This document shows, one piece after another, positions 15,126 through 42,476 of a DNA stretch of 64,000 nt. A program made the position numbers and the translations under genes. Positions within the stretch are counted from its first letter, which is position 1; every line of letters starts with the position of its first letter. The DNA comes from a virus. The notes beneath the pieces were generated by a model that was not told where the DNA came from, searched no databases, and was given only the letters and a program-made list of their open reading frames with translations. The DNA lies in IMG/VR virus record IMGVR_UViG_3300027763_000026. One strand, given 5' to 3'.

Positions 15126-15464
15126 GTGAGTAATCATAAACTTTGCCAATTTATAGTTAAAAAATATGTAAAAGGTACTATCAATTGGCCAAGGGAAATC
15201 AAAATTGCTCAAAGATTAATTAAAAAATTCAAATCTTTTGATTTTTGGGATAACTTACAAGAGCTAGGCTCACCTCCTCCTTCATTAGCTTGGTTCTTAA
15301 AATCAGAGGGCAAGGCTTTCTTACTAAAGGAATATGAATCTTTTAATATGAATTTAAATAAAAAAGAAATACCCCTTAGTCAAAATAGAACGGGAGAAGA
15401 TAAAAAAGTTTGCCAAAAACCTAAAACCCTGTTAGAATTTATAAGATATGGGAAGAAAACCTAA
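15126..15464 (+). CDS. Hypothetical protein, first gene of the replication block
   Basis: ORF (GTG) directly after a promoter, overlapping recA by 17 nt. Confidence 0.65.
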   Translation: MSNHKLCQFIVKKYVKGTINWPREIKIAQRLIKKFKSFDFWDNLQELGSPPPSLAWFLKSEGKAFLLKEYESFNMNLNKKEIPLSQNRTGEDKKVCQKPKTLLEFIRYGKKT

Positions 15465-16593
15465 AGAACAAGATCCAGTACAAGATACTGGGCCGAGCGC
15501 AAAAGACAGATTGTCTTCATTTTTAAAAGAAAATAAAGAAGACCATTATAATTATGAAGAAGAGGTTTATTACAAAGTCTCTACGGGAAGTCTGAATTTG
15601 GATATTGCGACGAGTGGAGGTTTATGTCCAGGATTACATAGATTTATTGGAATGAATGAAGGCGGTAAAACCTCAGAAGCACTAGAGGTAATGAAGAACT
15701 TCCTTAAAACCGTAAAAGATTCTAAAGCCCTACTATTTAAAGCTGAAGGAAGATTAAGTAAAGAAATTAAAGAAAGGTCGGGAATAAAGTTCGTAACTTC
15801 TGCTGAAGAATGGGAAGACGGAACATGCTTCGTTTTTGAATGTAATATTTTTGAAACAGTTTCTGAACTTATGAAAGACCTCATTCAAAATAATGATGAA
15901 GGCAAAAGATATATGTTCGTGTTGGACTCGGTTGACGGCTTAATGACTAAAGGGGATAGCCTTAAGAGTATGACAGAAGCAACAAAAGTCGCAGGAGGCG
16001 CGGTAATATCTTCCATGCTTATGAAAAAAATATCTTTAGCCCTTTCTAAGCGCGGACACATGGCCATATTTATTAGTCAGGTTCGTTCGGATATTAAACT
16101 CGATCCATATGCAGCTAATAAAGATATCCGCCAAACGACCGCAACTGGCGGAAACGCTCTTTTACATTTTGCTAACTGGATACTTGAATTTGAACCAAAA
16201 TTTGGAAAAGACCTTATATTAGAAAAACCAAACGAAAGATACGATCAAGTCAAGAATAAAATCATTGGTCATAATGTTAAAATCATCATTAAAAAATCCA
16301 CTAATGAAACTACAAATTCAAAAGTCCAATACCCGATTAAGTATGGCAGAAAAGATGGTTCTTCAGTATGGAGAGAATATGAGGTTATCGACCAAATTCT
16401 TTCTTGGGAGTTCGCATCTGCCAAAGGTGCATGGGTTACTTTTACAGATGAGATTATAGAAGAGCTTAAAAAAGAAAATTTAGAATTAAAAAAACAACAC
16501 CAAGGAGTAGACAATCTTAGGTCTTATCTAGAAGACAACAAGGCGGTTGTAGATTTCTTTTATAGTAAATTTATTAATACTTTAGCTTTATGA
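15448..16593 (+). CDS. recA: RecA/UvsX-like recombinase
   Basis: VSTGSLNLDIA..GGL, Walker A GMNEGGKT, Walker B FVLDSV, IFISQVR, TGGNALLHFA. Confidence 0.9.
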   Translation: MGRKPKEQDPVQDTGPSAKDRLSSFLKENKEDHYNYEEEVYYKVSTGSLNLDIATSGGLCPGLHRFIGMNEGGKTSEALEVMKNFLKTVKDSKALLFKAEGRLSKEIKERSGIKFVTSAEEWEDGTCFVFECNIFETVSELMKDLIQNNDEGKRYMFVLDSVDGLMTKGDSLKSMTEATKVAGGAVISSMLMKKISLALSKRGHMAIFISQVRSDIKLDPYAANKDIRQTTATGGNALLHFANWILEFEPKFGKDLILEKPNERYDQVKNKIIGHNVKIIIKKSTNETTNSKVQYPIKYGRKDGSSVWREYEVIDQILSWEFASAKGAWVTFTDEIIEELKKENLELKKQHQGVDNLRSYLEDNKAVVDFFYSKFINTLAL

Positions 16594-17009
16594 GGCTTTT
16601 AAATGTTAGCGGAAAGCTCGTTAACAAAAATGTCAGAAGATACCTAGTTAATTGGGAAGCGAAAAGTAGAAGCAAACTTCAATATAAGTTTAAAGAGTTT
16701 TTTTATCCTTATTGGAAAAATCATATAGTCTATGAGGAGTTCCCAGTTTATGGAAGCATGCTTAAAGTCGACTTATTAAATGCAACAAAAAAGATAGCCG
16801 TAGAGATACAAGGAGATCAACACGAATCCTTTAATAAATTTTTTCATGATAATTCAAGATTAAAATACCTTCAGAGCATTAAAAGAGATGTTAAAAAGGA
16901 GAAATGGATCGAATTAAATCAATTTAAATTCCTAGAACTCTACGAGAGCGACCTTAAAAATCTATCACCACAATATATAGAAGAAAAGTGCGGAGTACTC
17001 ATTATTTAA
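16590..17009 (+). CDS. PD-(D/E)xK endonuclease (DUF559/Vsr-like)
   Basis: EEFPV...KVDLLNATKKIAVEIQGDQH...RDVKK pattern. Confidence 0.7.
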   Translation: MRLLNVSGKLVNKNVRRYLVNWEAKSRSKLQYKFKEFFYPYWKNHIVYEEFPVYGSMLKVDLLNATKKIAVEIQGDQHESFNKFFHDNSRLKYLQSIKRDVKKEKWIELNQFKFLELYESDLKNLSPQYIEEKCGVLII

Positions 17010-17341: not shown

Positions 17342-18826
17342 ATGATTTACTCTCTACAAGTTGAACGGCATGTCCTTAGCGGTTTATTAAAATATCAAGA
17401 TCTTTTTGCTGATATTGATGTCTTTTTATCTGAAAATGACTTTTTTAATGACGTTCATTCTACTATTTATTCGGTGTTTAAGAATATCAAATATAAAGGT
17501 GAAATTGTAGATAAAGTCTTGCTAGCAGAAAAGATAAAGAATTTGGGCATATCTTTTAAAGATGAAATTAATATTTTTGACTACATAGACAACTTAACCT
17601 TTTCTCAGATTACAGAACAAGCGACCATGACAGCATGCAAAGAATTAATTAAATTTAGAATAAGGAGAGAGCTTTGTCAAACAGCAGACAATCTCAAAGA
17701 ATACGTTACTAAAAATACAGAAGACTCATTAGACGAAATTATTAGTAAAATAGACGGGATATATAATAAAAAAATTTCATCTTATTCAGAAAACGATACC
17801 CCAATTAATATTTTCGAAGGAGTAGAAGATCTTATCGAAGAAAGAGGAAACTCTCCTAAAGACGAAACTGGGTTGATCACACCTTACTCAGAATTTAATA
17901 GGATGTACGGTGGCTTAAAAAATGGTAATATTTATGCTATCGCCAGTAGACCTGGTCAAGGAAAATCGACTTGGCTTAATGATATTTGTTTTAAAACCGC
18001 TATGAATCCCAAGAATAAAACCAAGACTTTAATTCTAGACACCGAAATGCAAACAGTAGATATTCAATTAAGGATGGTTGCATCTTTAAGTGGCGTGCCA
18101 GTTTGGTATCTTGAAACTGGCAACTGGCGTAAAAATGAAGAAATGACAAGGAAAGTGAGAGAAGCTTGGGGCAAGGTAAAGAAATATGAATATTTTCATT
18201 ATCATGTCGGCAATAAAAACATTGATCAAATTTGTTCTATAATTCGTAGATGGTACCTTTCTAAAGTCGGCAGAGGAAATCAAGCTATGATTGCTTATGA
18301 TTATATAAAATTAACTGGAGAAAAAGTTGGCCAAAATTGGGCAGAGCATCAGGCTATTGGAGACAAAATCGATAAGCTCAAAAGAATATCAGAAGAAATT
18401 CAATGCCCAGTTATTACCGCAATGCAATTGAATAGAACTGGAGAAAGCTTTAATAGGAAAGGCACAGAGGTAGTTGACGATAGCTCAGTCATTTCTTTAT
18501 CCGATAGGCTTCAATGGTTTGCCTCCTTTGTCGCGATCTTTAGAAGAAAAACTTTAGATGAGCTTACTCTAGACGGCCAAACGTTTGGCACACATAAATT
18601 GATACCAACAAAAACTAGGTTTCAAGGTAAGGACGCAGCAGGTCACCAAGACTTGGTGAGGAGATTAGACTCCAAAGGAAAAGAGACATGGGCACAGAAT
18701 TACTTGAATTATCAGGTAGAAAATTTTAATATCGAAGAGCGTGGCTCTTTGACCGATGTCTCTACCTCCCAAAGAGAGCGTTACGAACTTAATGATTCTA
18801 ATCAAAACGACGGAGAAATATTATGA
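17342..18826 (+). CDS. dnaB: Replicative DNA helicase (DnaB family)
   Basis: N-terminal ERHVLSGLL domain, Walker A SRPGQGKS, LDTEM, Walker B YDYIKL, AMQLNR, KTRF. Confidence 0.92.
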   Translation: MIYSLQVERHVLSGLLKYQDLFADIDVFLSENDFFNDVHSTIYSVFKNIKYKGEIVDKVLLAEKIKNLGISFKDEINIFDYIDNLTFSQITEQATMTACKELIKFRIRRELCQTADNLKEYVTKNTEDSLDEIISKIDGIYNKKISSYSENDTPINIFEGVEDLIEERGNSPKDETGLITPYSEFNRMYGGLKNGNIYAIASRPGQGKSTWLNDICFKTAMNPKNKTKTLILDTEMQTVDIQLRMVASLSGVPVWYLETGNWRKNEEMTRKVREAWGKVKKYEYFHYHVGNKNIDQICSIIRRWYLSKVGRGNQAMIAYDYIKLTGEKVGQNWAEHQAIGDKIDKLKRISEEIQCPVITAMQLNRTGESFNRKGTEVVDDSSVISLSDRLQWFASFVAIFRRKTLDELTLDGQTFGTHKLIPTKTRFQGKDAAGHQDLVRRLDSKGKETWAQNYLNYQVENFNIEERGSLTDVSTSQRERYELNDSNQNDGEIL

Positions 18827-19479
18827 GCGTAATTTTAGTGTCAGTAACAAAACCAGAGATTAAACAAATTAAAAATGCAGAAGATTTAGTTGCATTTTGC
18901 GCTAGAGTTAGCAATCCGTCTAATCAAATGAATACTGAGAGCGCCCCAAAACTATTAAAATTTTTAATTAAACACAAGCATTGGAGTCCATTTGAACTTG
19001 TCGATATGTGTGTTGAAATTAAAACTAGTCGTGGAATCGCTGCTCAAATTTTAAGGCATAGATCATTTAGCTTTCAGGAATTTTCGCAAAGATATAGCGA
19101 AGCTACCGATTATGAAGATGTAGAATTAAGGCTTCAAGGAAGTAAGAATAGGCAAGTCGGAGAAGATCTTTTACCAAAAAATCATCCAGAATTTAATAAT
19201 TTAAATGCGCTTTTAGCAGAATCTCTTTCTTTGTCTGAGCATTGTTATCGAACAATGGTAGACAATGGCATAGCTAAAGAAGTAGCAAGAATGGTTTTAC
19301 CCTTGACAACGCAAACTACAATGTATATGAAAGGGTCTTTAAGAAGCTGGATTCATTACATTGACTTGAGAACTCAAGACAATACCCAAAAAGAACACAG
19401 ATTGATTGCTGATCAATGCAAAAAAATATTCATAGACAACTTTCCAGTAATATCAGAGGCATTAGAATGGAAGAATTAA
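18823..19479 (+). CDS. thyX: FAD-dependent thymidylate synthase
   Basis: RHRSFSFQEFSQRY signature, KEVARMVLP, RSWIHYIDLR. Confidence 0.97.
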   Translation: MSVILVSVTKPEIKQIKNAEDLVAFCARVSNPSNQMNTESAPKLLKFLIKHKHWSPFELVDMCVEIKTSRGIAAQILRHRSFSFQEFSQRYSEATDYEDVELRLQGSKNRQVGEDLLPKNHPEFNNLNALLAESLSLSEHCYRTMVDNGIAKEVARMVLPLTTQTTMYMKGSLRSWIHYIDLRTQDNTQKEHRLIADQCKKIFIDNFPVISEALEWKN

Positions 19480-20372
19480 ACGTCTTTCAAGTCCTTACGG
19501 ATTTAGGATATAAATTGAAAGACCATGGTAAAGAATATCGCGCAAGACCTTTATATAGAGATAGCGACAACGACACAGTATTAAAAATAGAAAAAAATAG
19601 CGGTAACTGGTTCGATTTTAAACAGAACATAAGTGGCGATTTAAATTCATTAGTTAAAATAACTTTAAAATTAGATGACGTTGATGAAGCTAAACAATGG
19701 CTTAAGAATAAAAATTTCATATCTCAAGTCGCTTCCGATTTAGAAAAGCCTTTAATTAAATCTTCGAAAAGTTTTGATATAAATATTTTAGATAGACTAG
19801 AGAATCGACACGACTATTGGATCAATAGAAATATAGATCAAGAAACTATATCTCAATTTAAAGGTGGCGTAGCGCACGCTGGCAAAATGAAGAATAGGTA
19901 TGTTTTTCCTATTTTCAATTTAAAAAATAATATCATAGGGTTCTCTGGCAGAGACGTTACAAACATGTCTAAGATAAAATGGAAACATCTTGGGGAAAAA
20001 AGCGATTTTTTATATCCATTATTTTTAAATCATTCTATATTAGAGCAACAAAGGGAAATTATACTGGTAGAGAGTGTAGGAGATATGCTAAATCTATGGC
20101 AAAATGATATTAAAAATGTTTTAGTTACTTTCGGCACGAGCCTTAGCTTGCCCATACTAAATCATATGCTTAAATTAGATATTAAAAAAATATATATCAG
20201 CTTGAATAATGATTCAAATAAAAATATGGCAGGGAATATTGGTGCAGAGAAAATCCATTCTAGGCTCAAAAGATATTTTGATCAACGACAATTTAAAATT
20301 GCACTACCTATTAAAAAAGATTTTGGAGAGATGACAAGGGAGGAGATACTTCAATGGAAAAAAACTCTTTAA
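19467..20372 (+). CDS. dnaG: DNA primase (DnaG-like TOPRIM)
   Basis: Likely start is ATG 19467 (MEELNV). RYVFPIFN...IIGFSGR, KWKH, ILVESVGD, FGTSLS, KDFGEM. Confidence 0.85.
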   Translation: MEELNVFQVLTDLGYKLKDHGKEYRARPLYRDSDNDTVLKIEKNSGNWFDFKQNISGDLNSLVKITLKLDDVDEAKQWLKNKNFISQVASDLEKPLIKSSKSFDINILDRLENRHDYWINRNIDQETISQFKGGVAHAGKMKNRYVFPIFNLKNNIIGFSGRDVTNMSKIKWKHLGEKSDFLYPLFLNHSILEQQREIILVESVGDMLNLWQNDIKNVLVTFGTSLSLPILNHMLKLDIKKIYISLNNDSNKNMAGNIGAEKIHSRLKRYFDQRQFKIALPIKKDFGEMTREEILQWKKTL

Positions 20373-21304
20373 AAGCATTGTCAGCATCTAGAATTAAAAC
20401 TCTTGAAACCTGTTCTTGGGTTTACTGGAACAATTATCACGCTAAAGTTCCTCAAACTCAGAATGAAGGAGCTTTGAGAGGTACAATTTGTCACACAGTT
20501 TTTGAATTACTATTAAGGGAAAGGCACAAAAGACATTATGATATTATAATTAAAAATAATTCGATAAACGGTAGTAAAAGTATATCCAGATTAGTTAAAA
20601 AATTGTCATTGAAGGTCGGCCTTGCATACTCTAATTACGAGTTATTGGATCAAATGATATTAGTCGGACTCAAAGAGGATTTCTTTGGAGAAAATGGTAA
20701 AATAGTAAAACCAGAATATTCTTTTGATATTCAAAACGATCACCCTAAATATCATATTCGTGGGTTTATGGACAAGCCCATTAAAATCAAAAAAGAAATG
20801 CATATAATCGACTACAAGAGCTCTAAATATAAATTCAGAGGAGATGAGCTTGAGGCCAATATACAAGCGATGATGTATAGTCTAGCTAGTAAAAAACTTT
20901 GGCCTAAATTAAAACCTATAATCAAATTTCTTTTTCTTAGATTCCCTAAAAAGCCTACTCAGGAACTTTCATTTAATGACGAGCAAATCAAAGGGTTTGA
21001 ATATTACTTAGAGCATATTAACGAATATATAAATAATTTTGATGAAAATAGCGCAAAGGCTAATTTCGCAGTAGATAGCCAAAAGAATAAATGGATGTGC
21101 GGTATAGGGTCTTGGGTGTGTCCATATAAAGCTTCTTATGATTATTATGTCAAAATAAATGAGGGCGGAGAAATTGTAGAAACCAGCCTAAAGAATGATT
21201 TTAAAAATATTGACGGTTTTAAAATAGAAGCAAGAAAATATGAAGGATGCCCAAAATTTAATAATGCAGAAGAGGCTTCAGAAAAAGATAATTTTTTAGA
21301 TTGA
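20354..21304 (+). CDS. PD-(D/E)xK exonuclease (RecB/Cas4-like superfamily)
   Basis: LSASRIKTLETC, GTICH, IRGFMD...IIDYKSS, QAMMYSL; C-terminal cysteines. Confidence 0.8.
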   Translation: MEKNSLKALSASRIKTLETCSWVYWNNYHAKVPQTQNEGALRGTICHTVFELLLRERHKRHYDIIIKNNSINGSKSISRLVKKLSLKVGLAYSNYELLDQMILVGLKEDFFGENGKIVKPEYSFDIQNDHPKYHIRGFMDKPIKIKKEMHIIDYKSSKYKFRGDELEANIQAMMYSLASKKLWPKLKPIIKFLFLRFPKKPTQELSFNDEQIKGFEYYLEHINEYINNFDENSAKANFAVDSQKNKWMCGIGSWVCPYKASYDYYVKINEGGEIVETSLKNDFKNIDGFKIEARKYEGCPKFNNAEEASEKDNFLD

Positions 21305-22722: not shown

Positions 22723-22953
22723 ATGGGTTCATTAGATAACGTTTATGACACTATACAAAAATTAGAAGATTACGGAGTGGAATATCTTCTTATAACTATA
22801 GAAAAAGGAAAGAAGAAAGGTAAAGCCGATGTATTCTATAGCTTAAAAGATAAAGCCTCTATGAAAATCTTATCAAGAGGGCTAGAAATCTTTAATGAAG
22901 AAATAGATAAAATTGAAAAAGAGCAAGAGGAAAACGAAAATGAAGACGAATAA
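22723..22953 (+). CDS. Small acidic-tailed hypothetical protein
   Basis: ORF between dnaQ and dnaE; tail EKEQEENENEDE. Confidence 0.7.
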   Translation: MGSLDNVYDTIQKLEDYGVEYLLITIEKGKKKGKADVFYSLKDKASMKILSRGLEIFNEEIDKIEKEQEENENEDE

Positions 22954-25528
22954 TTATTCTAATATTAAAGATTTTTCTGCTCAATTCGAGAATACAGATC
23001 TAGATATTCATGGAGTTAGATTACCTGAGTTTAAAATTGATCTTGCTTCTAAAAGACATTTAGCTATTAGCGAGGACTCATCAAATTATGATTTTTTAAG
23101 AGCTTTAGCGCTTAATGGTTTTAAAACTTTAAATATCAATAAAACCAATAAAGATTATAAGAAATATGTTGATAGAGCAAAGTATGAGTTAGATACCTTA
23201 AAAGAGTTAGGGTTCATTGATTACGTATTATTAGTCTGGGACGTTATCCATTTTTGTAAAACTAGCGATATCCCAGTAGGCTTAGGCAGAGGTTCAGCAG
23301 CTGGGTCCTTGATATTGTACTTGGTGGGGGTTACCAGAATTGATCCAGTTAAATATGACCTCTATTTTGAAAGATTTATATCTAAGATTCGTGCTAAAAA
23401 GCAGGTTATTGATGGGGTAACATATCTGGATGGCAGTTTGATGTGCGACGTAGATTTAGATATTTGTTATTATAACCGTCAAAAAGTATTACAATATCTA
23501 GAAACTAAATTCAAAGGTAAAACTAGCAAAATATTAACCTTTAATAGTTTAAGCGGTAAATTACTTATTAAAGAGTGTGGTAAAATTATCGCTGAAAAAC
23601 CCGAGCAAGAAATGACTATGATCTCTTCTTTAATTCCTAAAACCTATGGTCAAGTCAAAGATATTTCAGAAGCTTATCAAGAAGTTGAGCAGTTTAAAGA
23701 TTGGTGCGACCAAAATAAAGAAGCGTATCAAATAGCCCTGAGATTGCGAGATTTAATCAAAAATAAAGGAGTACACCCTTCTGGAGTGCTACTTTCTTAT
23801 TACGATTTAGAAACTATATGCCCAACAGAATTTTCTTCGGATAAAGAAGTCGTGTCTAGTTTTGATATGAACTGGGCAAGTGTTTTTAATATAAAGTTAG
23901 ATATTCTTGGCTTAAGAAGCGTTTCTGTCGTAGATAATGTTTGCAAGAGTATTAATATAAAAATAGAAGACATAAATTTAAATCATGAGTCTATTTATAG
24001 GAATTTACAAGATTTAAAATCCCCACATGGTTTATTTCAAATCGAAGCAGAAACTAATTTTAGAGTATGCCAAAAAGTTAAACCGAAAAGTTTAGAAGAG
24101 CTTAGCGGTGTTCTTGCCTTGGCTAGACCTGGAGCCCTTCAATTCGTAGATAAATACGCAGCCCATACAAATTATCAGCAATCAGAAAGTATTCATCCGT
24201 TCTTTGATGAGATTTTAAAAGAAACTGGCGGAGTTGCTTTATACCAAGAGCAATTAATGAAAATGGCCCATAAGATTGGTTTTACTTTGGACGAAGCAGA
24301 AATCTTAAGAAGAATCGTGGGTAAAAAGAAAACCGAAGAGATTAAAGCTTGGAAAGATAAGATCGAGAAAAAATGCGAACAAAATAAACTCCCTATGGAG
24401 ATTAGCGAAATTCTTTGGAAAATTTTAGAAGATTCTGCAAATTATAGCTTCAATAAATCACATTCTATTTCTTACGCAGGATTAGCCGCAATTACTGTTT
24501 ATCTTAAATTTAATTATCCTCAACAATTCTTTTTGTCATTATTAAAAATGACTAGGAATGAGCCAGACCCAATTGGAGAAATATCTAAGATTCAAAAAGA
24601 AATGCATAACTTTGGAATCAGGCTTCTCCCTCCTCATATCATTAAATCAGAAATGGACTTCTCGACTGAGAACAACGATATTAGATTTGGTCTATTATCA
24701 ATCAAAGGGATTAGCGATAAGTCAATAGAAAAATTAAATAGTTTTAGAAATAAATATTCAAATAAATTTGAGATATTTGAAGCCGCAGAAGAAGCTGGAT
24801 TAAATATTGGGGCGCTATCTGCATTAATTCAAGCTGGGGCACTTAGCGGGTTTAATCAATCAAGAAGTAAAATAGTGTTAGAGGTCCAATTATGGAACAT
24901 GCTTACCTCTAAGGAGAAAAAGTACGCTATATCATTTGCGGATAAATTTGATTATGATTTAATTAAAATCATTAAACATCTGAATAAGTTCACTGATGAG
25001 AAAAATAAAGTAGTTATCAAAGACAATAGATTAAAAACTATTAAAGAAAAATATACTCCATATCTAAGTATATATGAACAAAATAATAAAAGTGAAAGTT
25101 TTGCTAACTGGTATTACGAAAAGAAGCTCTTAGGGTATACTTACAATAAAGATCTAAAAGATATCTTTGCAGAAAAAAGAGAAAATCTCAAATACGTATC
25201 TGATGTATTAGATGAACCAGTCAATGCTAAAGTAGCTTTAGTTGGACAGATAGAAGAAATATTTTCTGGTATAGCTAAAAATGCTAAAAAGACAAAGTAT
25301 GTTAGGCTAAAGATATCAGACGAAACAAGCACAGTTAGCGTATTAATATTCAACGATAATATCGAGACAAACAAATTACTCAATGATAGGAGTTTTGAAG
25401 AGGGAAATATTGTTATAGTTAAAGGCTCGAAAAGAGATGATTGTATATTTGGCGATTTAATAGCGATCCAAGATCATGAGATTTATATGAAATTAAATGA
25501 TTTGAAAAAGATTGAGAAAAACAATTGA
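22940..25528 (+). CDS. dnaE: DNA polymerase III alpha catalytic core lacking the PHP domain
   Basis: Likely start ATG 22940. GRGSAAGSL, ITRIDP-like VTRIDP, LYFERF, DVDLD, HPSGV, KLDILGL, ALARPG, YQEQLM, FNKSHSISY, FGLLSIKG; C-terminal OB fold. Confidence 0.95.
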   Translation: MKTNNYSNIKDFSAQFENTDLDIHGVRLPEFKIDLASKRHLAISEDSSNYDFLRALALNGFKTLNINKTNKDYKKYVDRAKYELDTLKELGFIDYVLLVWDVIHFCKTSDIPVGLGRGSAAGSLILYLVGVTRIDPVKYDLYFERFISKIRAKKQVIDGVTYLDGSLMCDVDLDICYYNRQKVLQYLETKFKGKTSKILTFNSLSGKLLIKECGKIIAEKPEQEMTMISSLIPKTYGQVKDISEAYQEVEQFKDWCDQNKEAYQIALRLRDLIKNKGVHPSGVLLSYYDLETICPTEFSSDKEVVSSFDMNWASVFNIKLDILGLRSVSVVDNVCKSINIKIEDINLNHESIYRNLQDLKSPHGLFQIEAETNFRVCQKVKPKSLEELSGVLALARPGALQFVDKYAAHTNYQQSESIHPFFDEILKETGGVALYQEQLMKMAHKIGFTLDEAEILRRIVGKKKTEEIKAWKDKIEKKCEQNKLPMEISEILWKILEDSANYSFNKSHSISYAGLAAITVYLKFNYPQQFFLSLLKMTRNEPDPIGEISKIQKEMHNFGIRLLPPHIIKSEMDFSTENNDIRFGLLSIKGISDKSIEKLNSFRNKYSNKFEIFEAAEEAGLNIGALSALIQAGALSGFNQSRSKIVLEVQLWNMLTSKEKKYAISFADKFDYDLIKIIKHLNKFTDEKNKVVIKDNRLKTIKEKYTPYLSIYEQNNKSESFANWYYEKKLLGYTYNKDLKDIFAEKRENLKYVSDVLDEPVNAKVALVGQIEEIFSGIAKNAKKTKYVRLKISDETSTVSVLIFNDNIETNKLLNDRSFEEGNIVIVKGSKRDDCIFGDLIAIQDHEIYMKLNDLKKIEKNN

Positions 25529-25553
25529 CATTACTTTATATTTAAGATAATAT
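25525..25553 (+). promoter_or_regulatory. Sigma70-like promoter
   Basis: TTGACA-17nt-TAATAT; ATG 6 nt downstream. Confidence 0.7.
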
Positions 25554-25559
25554 ATTAAT

Positions 25560-26102
25560 ATGATATCATTCTACAAACCTAATAGTAAAAATAGTGGAAC
25601 TGCTTGCAGTTTCACAGTAAACGCAAAAGACGCTTCGATTTGGGGCTCATTAATTAAACAGTCCTCTTGGAATGAGGCTAAGAAAATTGGTTCGTTCTCC
25701 GAAAATCAAAATAACCCGAATAAAAGCGTTAAAGTTAAATTTTCATTAACAGAGGCTGCTGGTATTTTAGACGCTATTGAAAGAAATACAGAATTTTCAG
25801 CATATCATACTTCAGAGAAACAGACCACGCGAATTAAATTATGTCCATATATCAGGGACGAAAAACAAGTTGGATTCTCTTATGCGGTGAATAAAGAGGA
25901 CAAACAAAATAGCGAAAATAAACAATCGTATTTGATTGGCTTTTATTTTAATGAGGCTAGATTATTGAAACAATTCTTATCCTACGCTTTAGATTCAGTT
26001 TTTGAATCCCAAAGAATTGAAATGATTAAAAAATTAAAAAATAACCCCAAAGAAACCAAAGAAAAAGAAACAACTACAGAAGAAGATAGCGAGCTCTGGT
26101 AG
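25560..26102 (+). CDS. Putative single-stranded DNA-binding protein, Whirly/PC4-like fold
   Basis: Two predicted beta4-alpha repeats (…VKFSLTEAAGIL…AYH; …GFSYAV…YLIGFYFNEARLL) resembling plant Whirly, plus acidic tail EEDSELW; directly after dnaE. Confidence 0.55.
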   Translation: MISFYKPNSKNSGTACSFTVNAKDASIWGSLIKQSSWNEAKKIGSFSENQNNPNKSVKVKFSLTEAAGILDAIERNTEFSAYHTSEKQTTRIKLCPYIRDEKQVGFSYAVNKEDKQNSENKQSYLIGFYFNEARLLKQFLSYALDSVFESQRIEMIKKLKNNPKETKEKETTTEEDSELW

Positions 26103-26106
26103 TTGA

Positions 26107-28017
26107 ATGAAGAAAAAAAAGATACTATATCAATCTGATTTTGCTTTAGCGAAAACTGGATTCGCTAAAATTGCTAAAAATTTATTAACGTATTTGTATA
26201 ATACTGGCAAATATGAAGTTGTACAATATTGCTGTGGTTTACAGTACTCTAATCCAGAACTCAAGAGGACTCCCTGGAAATCAATCGGGGCTCTTCCAGA
26301 TAGTTCGCAAGAAATGCAAGAGTTAAATAAAGACCCTAATAACGCTAGATTAGCTAGTTATGGAGCTTATCTTTTGGACAGGGTCATTAACGAAGAAAAA
26401 CCAGATGTATATATCGCTGCGCAAGATATTTGGGGAATAGATTTTGCAATAGAGAAAAAATGGTTTGATAAAATCGGTTCGATTTTATGGACCACTTTAG
26501 ATTCCTTACCGATTCTACCTACCGCGCTTCAAAAAGCTCCGAAGATTAAAAACTATTGGATATGGAGTGATTTTGCTACAAAAGAATTAAATAGATTAGG
26601 GCATCCACATGTAAAGACTGTGCATGGGCCACTTGATACAAGTCATTTTTTTAAACTAGAAGACTGTAAAAGAAAAGCGCTTAGGAAAAAATTCAATATA
26701 GAAGAAGACGCATTTATAGTTGGATTTGTATTTAGAAATCAATTGAGGAAAAGTGTTCCGAATTTGTTAGAAGGTTACGCTTTATGGAAAAAAGAAAATC
26801 CGCAGGTGAAAAGTTATTTACTTTTGCACACTCATTGGGGTGAAGGATGGAATATTCATAAATTGGCAGATGAGTATGGAATAGACAAAAGAGAAATTTT
26901 AACAACATATATTTGTAAAAAATGCTCACAATACGAAGTAAAACCTTTCTACGGCCATGACTTGAATTGCAGATTTTGTGGTTCAGAGAAGTCTCAAGTG
27001 ACTTCAAATGTATCAATTGGTGTTGATGAAAGTCAACTAAATGAAATATATAATTTAATGGACGTGTACTGCCATCCATTTACTAGCGGGGGACAAGAGA
27101 TACCAATTCAAGAGGCTAAATTAGCAGAACTAATTACATTAGTAACGAATTATAGCTGTGGAGAAGATCTGTGCGTGGATGATGCAGGGACGCTCTCATT
27201 GGAGTGGTTTGAATATAGAGAGCATGGAACAGAATTTAAAAAAGCTTCAACTGATCCAATTTCAATTGCAAAAAACTTAAATAAAGCTTTTAAAATGACT
27301 CCTGAAGAAAGAGCTCTACTTGGTAAAAAAGCTAGAGAATGGACCATTGAAAATTATTCCATAGAAAAGATAGGTAAAATTTTTGAATCATTTATAGACA
27401 ATACCCCAGAAGCAGATTTTGGTTCAATAGAAAAAGAAGAACTTAGAGACCCATTTTGTCAGATACCAACAATTGAGGATAATTCCGAGTGGTTAGTTTT
27501 TATGTATCATAATATTTTGAAAATGAAAAATGTTGATGCAAAAGACAGTGGTCATCAATATTGGATGCAAGAATTAGAAAAAGGTACAAAAAGGCAAGAC
27601 ATAGAAAATTATTTTAGGCAGGTGGCCACGAAAGAGAACCAGCAAATGAAAAAAGTTGACTTTCAAGAGCTTTTAGATAAAGATGACGAAGGCAAAAGAA
27701 TGGTTTACGTAATTCCAGAATCAGCAGAAGATGTTTTCTTGTCCACCAGTCTTTTTAAAAATCTTAAAAAACAATATCCGAATTATAAGTTGTATGTAGC
27801 GACGAAAGAAGAGTACTTTTCTATATTAAAGGGTAATAAATATGTTGATAAAATCATACAATATTTTCCTCAGATGGATCAATTATTTTGGTTAGAAGGT
27901 ATTGGAGAACATAAAGGCTTTTTTGAAATAGCATTTTTACCTTACTTAGGAACGCAAAGAATAATGGACTATAGCCATAACGGTAAAACAAAAATAGAAT
28001 TCGCACTAAATAATTAG
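26107..28017 (+). CDS. Multidomain glycosyltransferase: GT4 (GT-B) with CxxC...CxxC insert, DUF4214-like helical domain and GT9-like N-half
   Basis: KTGFAK, FIVGFVFRNQLRKSVP, IYNLMDVYCHPFTSGGQEIPIQEAKL (GT4); CKKC/CRFC; YHNIL...SGHQYWMQEL; EDVFLSTSLFKNLKKQYPNYKLYVAT...GNKYVDKI. Confidence 0.75.
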   Translation: MKKKKILYQSDFALAKTGFAKIAKNLLTYLYNTGKYEVVQYCCGLQYSNPELKRTPWKSIGALPDSSQEMQELNKDPNNARLASYGAYLLDRVINEEKPDVYIAAQDIWGIDFAIEKKWFDKIGSILWTTLDSLPILPTALQKAPKIKNYWIWSDFATKELNRLGHPHVKTVHGPLDTSHFFKLEDCKRKALRKKFNIEEDAFIVGFVFRNQLRKSVPNLLEGYALWKKENPQVKSYLLLHTHWGEGWNIHKLADEYGIDKREILTTYICKKCSQYEVKPFYGHDLNCRFCGSEKSQVTSNVSIGVDESQLNEIYNLMDVYCHPFTSGGQEIPIQEAKLAELITLVTNYSCGEDLCVDDAGTLSLEWFEYREHGTEFKKASTDPISIAKNLNKAFKMTPEERALLGKKAREWTIENYSIEKIGKIFESFIDNTPEADFGSIEKEELRDPFCQIPTIEDNSEWLVFMYHNILKMKNVDAKDSGHQYWMQELEKGTKRQDIENYFRQVATKENQQMKKVDFQELLDKDDEGKRMVYVIPESAEDVFLSTSLFKNLKKQYPNYKLYVATKEEYFSILKGNKYVDKIIQYFPQMDQLFWLEGIGEHKGFFEIAFLPYLGTQRIMDYSHNGKTKIEFALNN

Positions 28018-28028
28018 TAAGATTAATT

Positions 28029-29183
28029 ATGCATTTAATAGAAAGATACGCTACTTCGTGCGGAATAAAAATAAATAAACCAGACATTTATCAAAAATAC
28101 CTGCCAATTCCTTACGAGAAATATATAGTATTTTATCCACAAAATATAAAAAATGCAGCCGAATACGCTCATTGGCAAATAGTTATTGATACCGTTTCTC
28201 AGTTTTTAACTCCTCAAAAGATTTACATACTCCAAATTGGAAATAAAGATTCCAAGAAATACACTAACTGCGCTTTTTTAGACGAAGCATCGGTTGATTT
28301 CCAAAACATGGCTTATATCATTAAAAATTCCGAACTGGTCTTAGGCGTAGATTCTATTAATAATCATATAGCCTCATCTTTTAATAAAAAAATAGTTGCG
28401 CTTTATTATAATATTAATTTGCAAAACGTTAAACCATATTGGGGAGATGAATCCAACCAGAAGATACTGTACCCTAAAGTTTCAACAAAACCATTTTATG
28501 GGTCAAATAACATTCATAAATCTATTAATCTTATAAATCCAGAGGAAATATGCAAATCTATTCTGGCGCTATTGAATATAAAGTATAATCAAATGATTAA
28601 TACTCTTTTCATTGGTGAAAATTTCAATAATAGAACATTAGACGTAGTCCCAGATGGACCTATGGAGATACAGACGTTAAATATTCAAAATTTAATAGTA
28701 AGGATGGATTTAAAATTTGATGAGGATATATTAAATAATCTTTTAACTCATAAAAAATGCATTATAATAACTAAAAAACAAATCAGTATAGACTTAATAA
28801 ATCGACACAAACAAAACATATTGCAAATTGTCTATATATTAGACAAAGATAACGATTTTGAATTTGTAAGGTTTATTAAAGCAGCCAATATCCAGTACGT
28901 GTTACTGTCCGAAGAATCAGATGAGACGATTAATAATTTTAAATTAAAATATATGGACTACGGTTTAATACATAAAAAAAATAAAAATGTAAAGAATTTC
29001 ACGCTTCCGAAAGATAAAAAAGCATTCTTTAGGTGCTCTAAACTTTATTTTTCATCCAAAGGAGTATTTAATGGTAAATATGCATGGCTGAATGATATAA
29101 AAAATTCACAAGATGTAACTGATGATAAAGTATTTTGGGAGGATATGCAGGATTTTCATATTTTCACTATTGACAATTTATAA
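28029..29183 (+). CDS. GT9-like (heptosyltransferase) C-half plus unknown C-terminal domain
   Basis: YIVFYP...YAHWQIVI...ILQIG...MAYIIKNSELVLGVDSINNHIASSFNKKIVALY. Confidence 0.65.
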   Translation: MHLIERYATSCGIKINKPDIYQKYLPIPYEKYIVFYPQNIKNAAEYAHWQIVIDTVSQFLTPQKIYILQIGNKDSKKYTNCAFLDEASVDFQNMAYIIKNSELVLGVDSINNHIASSFNKKIVALYYNINLQNVKPYWGDESNQKILYPKVSTKPFYGSNNIHKSINLINPEEICKSILALLNIKYNQMINTLFIGENFNNRTLDVVPDGPMEIQTLNIQNLIVRMDLKFDEDILNNLLTHKKCIIITKKQISIDLINRHKQNILQIVYILDKDNDFEFVRFIKAANIQYVLLSEESDETINNFKLKYMDYGLIHKKNKNVKNFTLPKDKKAFFRCSKLYFSSKGVFNGKYAWLNDIKNSQDVTDDKVFWEDMQDFHIFTIDNL

Positions 29184-29204: not shown

Positions 29205-30002
29205 ATGAGTCAAAAAATCAAAGACAACGAAGAAACTGTTTCAATTGGTAGTCAAACCCTTAAGGATGTTAATTTTAAATTAAATTCAATTATACCTAAA
29301 GTAGTACCTCCAAATATTATTACTAGGAACCAATACGGTCTTGTAGATGACTCTAATTTAAATTACGTCTTTAACGAGGACGGCTCAATCAACTGGCGTA
29401 AAATGGTAAAGATAGAGTACCTTGTGCCAAATCGTCAGAAAACACAAGAAACAGATGTATCAAAAATGGAAGATAAAGATCTTCTTATACTTTTAGGCGG
29501 AATTAAGGAACTGGCCCAAATTCGTGGGTATACAAAAGTAGAGTATAATGTTATTTCCGCTAGCGAAACATACTTTGCGACAAGCTGCCGTATAACGTGG
29601 ATTCCAAATTATGAAACAGATGGTAGAGAAATCGTATTCGAAGCTCTCGCTGATGCAACATATAATAATACAAAATCTTTTGCTAGATTTTTTCTAGCTG
29701 CAATCGCAGAAAATAGAGCCTTTGTGCGGTGCGTTCGCAATTTTCTTAAAATTAATATTGTGAGCCAAGAAGAGCTCGGAGATACTAAGCTTCTTAATGA
29801 GGCAATTAGCGTCAATGAGAGTCAAACTTCACCATATATTGTTTTAGAAAAAGTTATGAAGGATAAAGGCGTAACATTTGAAATCTTAAAAAATAAGTTG
29901 ATAAAAGAAAAGTTCGATAAGGCTGAGAGTTTAAACTCTGTTAATGATATTCCTAAAGTAAAAATATTTGAGCTTATAGAAAGAATTAAAAAATCTAAAT
30001 AA
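29205..30002 (+). CDS. Putative single-strand annealing protein (Rad52/Sak-like superfamily)
   Basis: LLGGIKELAQ...FEALADAT..N...AIAENRAFVRCVRNFL resembles recalled phage annealases (GDA.P.N...MAETRAKARALR); small helical C-terminal domain. Confidence 0.5.
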   Translation: MSQKIKDNEETVSIGSQTLKDVNFKLNSIIPKVVPPNIITRNQYGLVDDSNLNYVFNEDGSINWRKMVKIEYLVPNRQKTQETDVSKMEDKDLLILLGGIKELAQIRGYTKVEYNVISASETYFATSCRITWIPNYETDGREIVFEALADATYNNTKSFARFFLAAIAENRAFVRCVRNFLKINIVSQEELGDTKLLNEAISVNESQTSPYIVLEKVMKDKGVTFEILKNKLIKEKFDKAESLNSVNDIPKVKIFELIERIKKSK

Positions 30003-40253: not shown

Positions 40254-42476
40254 TTAATTTCTTATACTGACTTTATTTGGCCTTACTCTTTGCATAACTA
40301 GCTCTTGACTAGGAAGTTCTGGAGCTCTGCTTCTGTAACTTACATCTGCAAACGATCCATTTTCGTCAATATACATTGATAATGAGCTTAAGCCTTGACC
40401 TGGAGTTAATGGAAAATTATTCATATTTTTGATACCAATTATTTTTATATTTATGGTTTTTTGGGGATCAAGAACTACTTGCTTGATTGCTGCATTAATT
40501 TTTCCTCCAGAATTATCTTGAGCGTTCAAATTAGCTTTCATTGGTATTATGGATTGATCCCCTTCCATCGCGCCATTAAAATTGAATTCACTTTGGAAAG
40601 GTATACTGATTTCTGTATTTTTGGTTTCTATTCCATAAAAATATTCTCTTACGGGTAGCACTATTTTAACGCTGGAATCGATATATGATATAGTTATAGA
40701 GTTTGCATCTGCGGTTTTATGTCCAGGATTCGGAACTATAGTTGCTCCAGCGCCGCAACTAGTTTCATTTTTGCAAATTTCTTCTTCAGCCGAAGAGCTA
40801 CAAGGCCCATTACATGGATCTTGACTTGAATCTTCTGAAGTATTTCTATTTATATATAAGCCTTCTGAAATCCTAGGCTCGCAACCATTTTGAGAGTCCG
40901 TTAACCTTCCAAATTTTACGTCTAGAGGTATAGAATTAGGATTAGGAATCAGAGCTAAAAGAAGTCTGCCTTGCGCATAAAAAGACTCAATCTGTTGGCC
41001 TGCGCTTTCGCTTAAAGCGTTCAAAAGAGATAGTCTTACTTGCCCAGCATAATCCATATATACTGGAAAAAATATATCTAAATCGCCATAAAAAGATAAT
41101 TGATCTAAGCTCGGGCAATAAGTCGGTTCTTTTTCAATATAGTATGTTTTATTTCCATAGTAATTAAGATCTGGATCATACGTTGAATTAACTTTTATTT
41201 TTGATCCATCTTTAAAGCATTGATCAATATTCACTGGATTAGGCTCTCTGCTATAAAAATATCTTCCAAAATTGTTAAAAAAAGCTTCTTCTTGAGACTG
41301 CCAATAAGTTTCTAATTTTGAATCTTCTAAAAAAAATTGAAACACTGGTTTGGTTCCATACTCTTTAAATTTATTATGAAAGTCTACGTAGGTTTTTACA
41401 TCAAAACCTTGTGCAAAAACAGTGGTTGGATCTATTGAATAATTAAAATTAATTAAACCTATCCTTTCCCATAATCCTTTTTTCATAAAATAAAGTTTTC
41501 TAGCATTCGAATCAATTTTTCCTAAAATTGCACCAATCAATAATTGAGCTTGTGCGGCACTAAGGTCTGGGGGCGTTAAAGATCCTATTGTCGAAGTAAA
41601 TTTTAAAGAATTAGAGAAACTATAATTTGAATTTGTAAGCCCTCCTGGAGTAAAAGAGAACTCAGTAGAATAAGTTTCATAAGTGTTTTCTATCGTCTGC
41701 GACTCTGAATACGAAGCCAAGTATGGATTATTTTTTGATATGCTTGGCACGTCAATACCTTTTTGTAAATCATAAACTACTAGAGTATTCCTTGTCCAAT
41801 CAAAATAAAAATCCGCAGCAATATCTCTACAAATATTTGATAAAACTTCTCTTGCGGTCCCAGTATAATTAATCTTATAAGCAATATAAGGAGAGCTAAA
41901 TTCAATTCCAAATCCTGTTCTTTCTTTTAACGCACTTATAAAATTTCCGACAGTATACATAACCTCTGGAACATCACAACCATTTCCAGAAGGCTCTTCA
42001 CCACCCATGCATAATAAATTATTGCTAACTACATAACCATCGAATAATCCATCTCTAAATACAGTTCCTCTAACTTCCTTTACCTCTCCATTACATGGAC
42101 ATTTTGCATCTACGTCTATTAAGCGCCCAGTGGAAACAAAACCTTTAGTAGAGCAATGCCTTCTTATTAATCCTACGAATATTTTATCTAATAAATAAGA
42201 CTTATTAGTAAAAGAAAAATTATAAATATTTTGTCCTGGAGAAAAATTTTTTTCAGAACTAATTAAATAACAATCTAGAAAAGTCGTATTACCAATTTTT
42301 ATGCCACCAACTTTATCGCCAAGAGGCATGTCTGTTCCATCAACGACGCTTAAAGTTATTTTATCTAAATTTTGAGAATATCCAATATCAAATTTTATGT
42401 TATAAATGTACCCACCAGCAAATTTTCCTGGAAGATTACTACCAACGGTTACTTGTTCTATACTTTGCCTAGGCAT
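40254..42476 (-). CDS. Putative tail hub/baseplate protein
   Basis: Position in the tail module; two-beta-barrel-like start and YTGTAREVLSNICRDIAADFYFD segment typical of hub proteins. Confidence 0.5.
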   Translation of the reverse strand: MPRQSIEQVTVGSNLPGKFAGGYIYNIKFDIGYSQNLDKITLSVVDGTDMPLGDKVGGIKIGNTTFLDCYLISSEKNFSPGQNIYNFSFTNKSYLLDKIFVGLIRRHCSTKGFVSTGRLIDVDAKCPCNGEVKEVRGTVFRDGLFDGYVVSNNLLCMGGEEPSGNGCDVPEVMYTVGNFISALKERTGFGIEFSSPYIAYKINYTGTAREVLSNICRDIAADFYFDWTRNTLVVYDLQKGIDVPSISKNNPYLASYSESQTIENTYETYSTEFSFTPGGLTNSNYSFSNSLKFTSTIGSLTPPDLSAAQAQLLIGAILGKIDSNARKLYFMKKGLWERIGLINFNYSIDPTTVFAQGFDVKTYVDFHNKFKEYGTKPVFQFFLEDSKLETYWQSQEEAFFNNFGRYFYSREPNPVNIDQCFKDGSKIKVNSTYDPDLNYYGNKTYYIEKEPTYCPSLDQLSFYGDLDIFFPVYMDYAGQVRLSLLNALSESAGQQIESFYAQGRLLLALIPNPNSIPLDVKFGRLTDSQNGCEPRISEGLYINRNTSEDSSQDPCNGPCSSSAEEEICKNETSCGAGATIVPNPGHKTADANSITISYIDSSVKIVLPVREYFYGIETKNTEISIPFQSEFNFNGAMEGDQSIIPMKANLNAQDNSGGKINAAIKQVVLDPQKTINIKIIGIKNMNNFPLTPGQGLSSLSMYIDENGSFADVSYRSRAPELPSQELVMQRVRPNKVSIRN

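Follow-up and report, generated by a model that had tools for sequence, protein, structure and literature searches.

The proteins that coat single-stranded DNA (ssDNA) at replication forks almost always have an oligonucleotide/oligosaccharide-binding (OB) fold. Plant Whirly proteins are sequence-unspecific ssDNA binders (PMC7549692) that work with RecA-type recombinases and stimulate RecA strand exchange in vitro (bioRxiv 10.64898/2026.10.24.761589). Whirly folds are already on record in phages, in the form of ChmC, and Whirly names have been attached automatically to some viral proteins; we found no paper describing a Whirly-type ssDNA-binding protein (SSB) in a phage replisome. Here, we analysed a gene at positions 25560-26102 of a 64-kb stretch of viral DNA (referred to as "the window"; IMG/VR record IMGVR_UViG_3300027763_000026), which a preliminary description of the sequence had assigned to a Whirly-like protein in the "SSB slot" of a phage replisome. 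With a probability that we put at about 0.62, its product is the phage's own non-OB SSB for replication and recombination, a Whirly-fold protein with an SSB-type tip that recruits partners. The gene and the parts of its product are as follows:

25560-26102, + strand: putative gene for a Whirly-like ssDNA-binding protein (180 aa plus stop, ATG start, product ending ...ETTTEEDSELW)
25560-26033, + strand: Whirly core, residues 1-158 (beta4-alpha-beta4-long alpha; basic family-wide)
26034-26078, + strand: low-complexity linker, residues 159-173 (predicted to be disordered; the predicted local distance difference test score, pLDDT, falls to 71 and then to 55)
26079-26099, + strand: acidic tip EEDSELW, residues 174-180 (putative SSB-type C-terminal docking motif)

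We compared the protein and its relatives with plant Whirly proteins, represented by StWhy1 (PBF-2 p24), StWhy2 and AtWHY1/2/3, by the family PF08536, and by PDB entries 1l3a, 3n1h, 4kop, 4koo and 4koq. Searched as a single sequence against Pfam (E ≤ 10), the PHROGs and PDB sequences, the window protein matched nothing apart from a head-tail adaptor at E 0.15, which we attribute to chance; the relation to Whirly is therefore visible only through a family profile and through the fold. With a profile built from 117 diverse family members (A1), the four best PDB sequences were PBF-2 p24, StWhy2 (two sequences) and AtWHY2, at E-values of 0.0036-0.011 over profile positions 52-169, and MRP1 came next after the Whirly chains, at E 0.35. 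The profile similarity to solved Whirly proteins is marginal in size but appears specific. Residues H83, E65, G105 and E132 of the phage family are identical to the aligned residues of p24 in the hidden Markov model (HMM) alignment, and the HMM alignment with p24 and StWhy2 pairs the same segments that the preliminary description had put side by side (KxxFSLTE...FSAYH with FSLSVTE...EFFH, and GFS...IGFxFxEAxLL with GHFFNLS...IPVTKAEFAVL). PF08536 was matched at E < 0.1 by 16 of the 117 members (best E-value 1.7e-5); two members that we inspected reached 19.7 and 15.9 bits, over positions 44-135 of the 136 in the profile, below the curated Pfam cut-off of 23 bits. Detectable similarity to Whirly is limited to the second repeat and the helix that follows it, since a profile of the first 60 residues retrieved no Whirly chain.

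An AlphaFold model built on A1 (pLDDT 93.7; predicted template modelling score, pTM, 0.84) has the order beta4-alpha-beta4-alpha followed by a low-confidence tail, and so contains the two beta4-alpha repeats that had been read from the sequence. The long C-terminal helix of the model (residues 130-161) lies where Whirly proteins carry their tetramerisation helices. The top Foldseek matches of the model were WHY1/2/3, StWhy2, PBF-2 and MRP1/2, and its two-repeat Whirly (type I PC4-like) domain can be superposed on solved Whirly structures. No match to the OB-fold family PF00436 was found, and the fold of the model is of the Whirly type. In the ESM Atlas, the protein neighbours a viral cluster that is automatically named "Whirly transcription factor domain-containing protein" and has PF08536 on 13% of its members. 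The protein does not have the KGKAAL motif of higher-plant Whirly; its N-terminal strand is MISFYKPNSKNSG, with FYKPNxxNTG as the family consensus. From the aligned ranges (residue 1 of the model corresponds to StWhy2 residue 60), only Y-K could match within this region, and a profile of the N-terminal 60 residues does not demonstrate by sequence that Y5-K6 is the YK of YKGKAAL. Algal Whirly-like proteins also lack the motif (PMC9070903). Overall, the profile and the model show that the protein is homologous to plant Whirly in predicted fold and, weakly, in sequence, and on this basis it is a true but divergent Whirly relative, belonging to a sister family and not a member by the Pfam threshold.

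The end of the protein had been likened to the acidic-aromatic C-termini of bacterial SSBs, a likeness that extends across the family. The C-terminus of the window protein is EEDSELW, and that of E. coli SSB is DDDIPF. Of the 117 relatives, which are 30-50% identical, 49 terminate in W and 36 in F (85 of 117, or 73%). The last 12 residues of these 117 members contain on average 4.1 acidic and 0.4 basic residues, the consensus of the tip is [DE]x4-D-[I/L/P]-[W/F], and some members end in EEDEIPF, DDDTPF or DDDDIF. Between family members, the stretch after the core varies from 6 to 97 residues (median 33) and is rich in E/P/K/A/S/Q; the mean net charge is +5.7 for the core and -5.2 for the tail, and the core has basic and aromatic residues that are conserved. 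The linker-plus-acidic-tip arrangement of SSBs is thus present in the window protein, and with a basic folded core leading through a disordered linker to an acidic, W- or F-terminated tip, the family follows the domain logic of bacterial SSBs. We also searched all window open reading frames (ORFs) of at least 70 aa for ends with an aromatic last residue and at least three acidic and no basic residues among the last eight. Only 1 of 64 window ORFs, the Whirly gene, has such an end, as does 1 of 211 ORFs of a complete relative (G001), where it is the Whirly ortholog. To our knowledge, a terminal W is unusual for bacterial SSBs; its being commoner than F at the terminus of the phage proteins suggests tuning to phage-encoded partners.

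Two features at the start of the gene bear on its role:

22913-25528, + strand: DnaE (Pol III alpha core) gene, directly upstream of the Whirly gene; its product is a presumed partner
25525-25553, + strand: sigma70-type promoter-like element, TTGACA-17-TAATAT (10 of 12 matches), ending 6 nt before the ATG

The preliminary description had the gene following dnaE with a promoter of its own, and the junction agrees with it on both counts. The Whirly ORF starts 31 nt past the DnaE core gene, which resembles phage DnaE-like polymerases and whose orthologs match PF07733. Among 66 distinct upstream sequences from related loci, 64 carry a promoter-like element of the form TTGAC[AG]-17-TAnnnT that ends 6-9 nt ahead of the ATG, with a spacer whose sequence varies. 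Promoter-like sites in the AT-rich region are no commoner than in shuffles (40 found, 42.5 expected), and it is conservation, not the frequency of sites, that supports a conserved promoter belonging to the Whirly gene. Its distance of 6 nt from the ATG implies that the mRNA is probably leaderless or near-leaderless. Such a promoter would fit the high expression needed by a stoichiometric ssDNA coat.

We next considered whether another SSB accompanies the gene. Whole records were searched for 11 relatives, including four rated complete to 100% (172 kb), 100% (178 kb), 100% (203 kb, with terminal repeats) and 91%; the window itself was covered as the ORFs of the 64-kb stretch. DnaE, which served as the positive control, was found exactly once in all 11 records, as was the A1 profile; in 10 of the 11, no more than about 1 kb separates the two genes. 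PF00436, gp32 (PF08804) and the gp2.5 type (PF10991) were absent from all 11 records at E ≤ 1, PF16773 and DUF669 were absent from the five closest, and PF08536 run on the 11 gave nothing. In the window, likewise, no SSB family turned up when the block, and those small and medium ORFs outside it that were tested, were scanned with Pfam or the PHROGs. These scans of the window and of the relatives uphold the earlier claim that the block contains no OB-fold SSB. Whirly is thus a single-copy core gene of a clade of DnaE-encoding phages in which no known SSB family was found. An acidic tail together with the lack of any other SSB is the same logic by which DUF669 proteins were called SSBs (PMC4889955). 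The gene order DnaB-primase-nuclease-PHP-x-exonuclease-x-DnaE-target is the same around a family member at 32% identity, and in another lineage the Whirly gene follows DnaB, primase and a RecA-like gene. In one 158-kb record (G008, the record behind L128), the Whirly gene (C1:140201-140758) is 16 kb from DnaE, and the match lies in an open frame of 275 aa.

As a replisome SSB, the protein would assemble into homotetramers in the manner of plant Whirly, with ssDNA wrapped over their beta-sheet surfaces. The homotetramer would coat lagging-strand and resected DNA, and the tip would dock phage proteins onto the coated DNA; we infer ssDNA binding, tetramer formation and the contacts of the tip. 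The best candidate partner of the tip would be the product of a gene downstream, followed by the UvsX-like recombinase, DnaE, DnaB, the primase or the exonuclease:

29205-30002, + strand: candidate Red-beta/Rad52-type single-strand annealing protein, 265 aa, with a Red-beta-like C-terminal three-helix domain

This 265-aa protein gave no sequence match. Its predicted fold makes it a candidate annealase of the Red-beta/Rad52 kind, and its end domain appears similar to the one with which Red-beta binds the SSB tail; it is likely to be a client of the acidic tip. The annealase-like gene starts 3.6-4.3 kb after the start of the Whirly gene in 43 of 44 diverse loci. Together, the conserved tip, the single copy found with DnaE, the lack of a known SSB family in near-complete relatives and the nearby candidate annealase of the Red-beta type lend indirect support to the assignment to the SSB slot. 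The interval between the Whirly and annealase-like genes (26107-29183) holds a GT1/DUF4214-like gene (636 aa) and a GT9-like gene (384 aa). Because the spacing is kept in 43 of the 44 loci, the two glycosyltransferase genes count as conserved members of the replication and recombination block; they may possibly serve DNA glycosylation.

The Whirly gene closes this block in the window, the other members of which are as follows:

15448-16593, + strand: UvsX/RecA-like recombinase (PF00154 at 8.6e-11; phrog_97 UvsX-like recombinase at 2.8e-32), a presumed partner
17342-18826: DnaB
listed between DnaB and the primase: ThyX
19416-20372: DnaG-type primase
20354-21304, + strand: PD-(D/E)XK exonuclease (PF12705 at 2.2e-16; phrog_69 exonuclease at 2.8e-20), a possible partner of the annealase
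listed between the PD-(D/E)XK and RNase T/DnaQ-type exonucleases: separate PHP-domain gene
listed before the DnaE core gene: RNase T/DnaQ-type exonuclease

Two small ORFs lie among these genes. One, of 76 aa (22723-22953), is strongly acidic at its end (…EKEQEENENEDE) and conserved in 81 fetched loci, and it overlaps the TTG assigned as the start codon of the DnaE core gene. The other is a basic ORF of 139 aa (16590-17009) with a VEIQGDQH motif, which we take to be nuclease-like; it directly follows the UvsX-like recombinase both in the window and in the distant lineage L081, and it is present in 96 fetched loci. We considered the 139-aa product as a hidden SSB and set it aside, since it is basic, has no acidic tail and carries the nuclease-like motif. 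Its only PHROG match was a weak one to an HNH endonuclease, and in appearance it is closer to a nuclease than to a UvsY mediator or an SSB. Beyond the annealase-like gene, we scanned nine large structural-type proteins encoded on the - strand between 30003 and 62430, and the sole PHROG match was a weak one to a baseplate hub (40254-42476). So few matches among structural-type proteins indicate that the virion module comes from a poorly charted tailed-phage lineage.

A word-indexed search for relatives of the Whirly-like protein returned 251 clusters. Representatives at 50% identity number 524 at E ≤ 0.001 and 298 at E ≤ 1e-10. All members of the family are unnamed, and they are encoded on contigs of up to about 230 kb, including CheckV-complete records of 172, 178 and 203 kb. 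A tblastn search of 50,697 GenBank phage records with three members gave no match at E ≤ 0.01, and the family therefore has no detectable relation to any protein of these sequenced phages, ChmC included. Among about 185,000 species genomes, the family was found on one contig only of a metagenome-assembled genome (MAG). This sole match in a cellular genome (L178:2364-2798) comes from a contig of 19.6 kb that was assigned to an "uncultured Pseudomonadales" MAG, and the contig is either a hint to the host or a phage contig that was mis-binned. A profile search of a set of 5.8 billion proteins gave only close relatives among the matches listed and so did not connect the family to named Whirly proteins. 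Two very distant members (P0216 and P0232) served for pattern scans of viral contigs, which gave nothing, and in alignment-based pattern scans the family had no usable conserved stretch.

Several observations weigh against a replisome SSB of the Whirly type. The window protein has no PF08536 match even at E ≤ 10, and the profile of the N-terminal 60 residues matches no Whirly chain, leaving the N-terminal repeat without a sequence match. The Whirly fold also serves RNA binding, in MRP1/2 and in ChmC. One Whirly lineage is tailless (L134:10001-10462, L136:10001-10462 and L140:6533-7003; 153-156 aa, ending …TYKTNNK), and in two lineages the gene has as its neighbours giant structural-type genes, across a divergent junction, and the glycosyltransferase pair, which comes after it. 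In addition, OB folds are hard to detect from sequence, such that a cryptic OB-fold SSB is possible among the approximately 200 genes, and the phage could use the SSB of its host. With regard to the tailless loci, we observed that their annealase-like proteins have the most divergent C-terminal helix; the pairing of a tailless Whirly with a divergent annealase helix is a single event and stands as an anecdote.

If a host SSB or an undetected phage SSB coated the fork ssDNA, the protein might be an accessory ssDNA-binding factor for recombination and repair, with a tail that serves the annealase/recombinase pathway only. Plant organelles offer a parallel, having OB-fold SSBs beside a Whirly that is accessory to RecA (bioRxiv 10.64898/2026.10.24.761589), and the block does contain a UvsX-like recombinase, an exonuclease and an annealase-like gene. 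However, no known SSB family was found in the 11 records of the clade, four of them near-complete, the gene is directly after DnaE in 10 of the 11, and one would expect an SSB, too, from a phage that itself encodes DnaB, a primase, DnaE and a proofreading exonuclease. We consider a purely accessory role rather unlikely. An RNA-binding protein that handles phage transcripts, like ChmC of nucleus-forming jumbo phages or MRP1/2 of trypanosomes, with an acidic tail of a different role, would account for a gene that has its own promoter and is apart from the replication genes in some lineages. Moreover, ChmC is an RNA-preferring Whirly-fold homotetramer whose C-terminus is disordered and partly acidic. 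By contrast, the sequence signal points to plant Whirly (E 0.004) over MRP1 (E 0.35), the search of phage records with three members found nothing, the tip fits an SSB docking motif and not the N/G-rich, condensate-forming region of ChmC, and the link to DnaE is conserved, making a role of this kind very unlikely. We give hardly any credence to a double-stranded DNA (dsDNA) transcription regulator or nucleoid-type architectural protein, as implied by the name "Whirly transcription factor". PBF-2 p24 was indeed first described as a promoter-binding factor, and that name is the one automatically given to viral relatives, but solved Whirly-DNA complexes have ssDNA (PMC7549692), an SSB-type tip and a position in the replisome would not be expected of a regulator, and the model has no helix-turn-helix or other dsDNA-reading element.

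A phage SSB of the Whirly type would have consequences for the study of both SSBs and Whirly proteins. The possibility that OB-fold SSBs undergo non-orthologous displacement was raised in a global survey of viral replication proteins, which never mentions Whirly (PMC4889955); if our reading is true, a Whirly-type SSB would fill a gap noted in that survey. Across a clade of large phages with Pol III-type replisomes, a non-OB fold appears to hold the role of the fork SSB, with the linker and tip of SSBs either kept or re-invented. This would amount to a natural experiment on the essential parts of an SSB, pointing to the docking tip and the ability to coat DNA, and not to the OB fold. Plant reviews still treat Whirly as plant-specific, and the phage proteins, with their 524 representatives, constitute a large viral sister family, through which the origin of Whirly and its mechanism of handling ssDNA become testable in a simple 180-residue protein. 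A matched pair of SSB and annealase could, in addition, serve recombineering. The phage family might even be the ancestral pool of the eukaryotic organellar Whirly proteins, plant Whirly being domesticated phage SSBs without the docking tail; we regard this as a speculative and improbable scenario, proposed by analogy. The organellar phage-type RNA polymerase and the Twinkle primase-helicase are precedents for acquisition from phages.

Among the known systems, ChmC (PhiPA3 gp61, PhiKZ gp67; Chimalliviridae) is likewise a phage-encoded Whirly-fold protein with a disordered C-terminus, and is a homotetramer; unlike the protein described here, it has beta3-alpha repeats, prefers RNA, forms condensates and comes from nucleus-forming jumbo phages, with no reported SSB-type tip or DnaE context. 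The trypanosome guide-RNA-binding proteins MRP1 and MRP2 (PDB 2gia, 2gid, 2gje) differ in being an RNA-binding heterotetramer of kinetoplastid mitochondria, and their similarity to the phage family is weaker (E 0.35, versus 0.004 for p24). The PC4-like protein of phage T5 and the bacterial proteins YdbC and SP_0782 are also non-OB ssDNA binders of the wider PC4-like fold class (PMC7549692), but they are single-repeat, dimerising proteins (type II), in contrast to the two-repeat Whirly type (type I) found here, and they were not among the listed structural matches of the model.

Plant Whirly proteins share with the phage family a weak but consistent similarity over the second repeat and the helix. 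They differ from it in sequence, with about 13% identity and the phage protein below any PF08536 score, in their organelle-targeting peptide, which the phage protein lacks as it begins at strand 1, and in the KGKAAL motif, in place of which the N-terminal strand of the phage protein has FYKPNSKN. The phage gene, unlike those of plants, adjoins a Pol III-type polymerase, and we know of no plant Whirly with a linker and an SSB-type acidic tip. It is in these last features that the phage protein is like the tailed SSBs, namely bacterial SSB (PF00436), T7 gp2.5, T4 gp32 and the DUF669/N4 type, which also consist of a DNA-binding core, a disordered linker and an acidic tip with a hydrophobic or aromatic end, and whose genomic role beside helicase, primase and polymerase is the one expected here. 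The phage family differs from bacterial SSB in that its terminus is W (49 members) more often than F (36), and from all of the tailed SSBs in that its core has the Whirly fold of the model where theirs has an OB fold.
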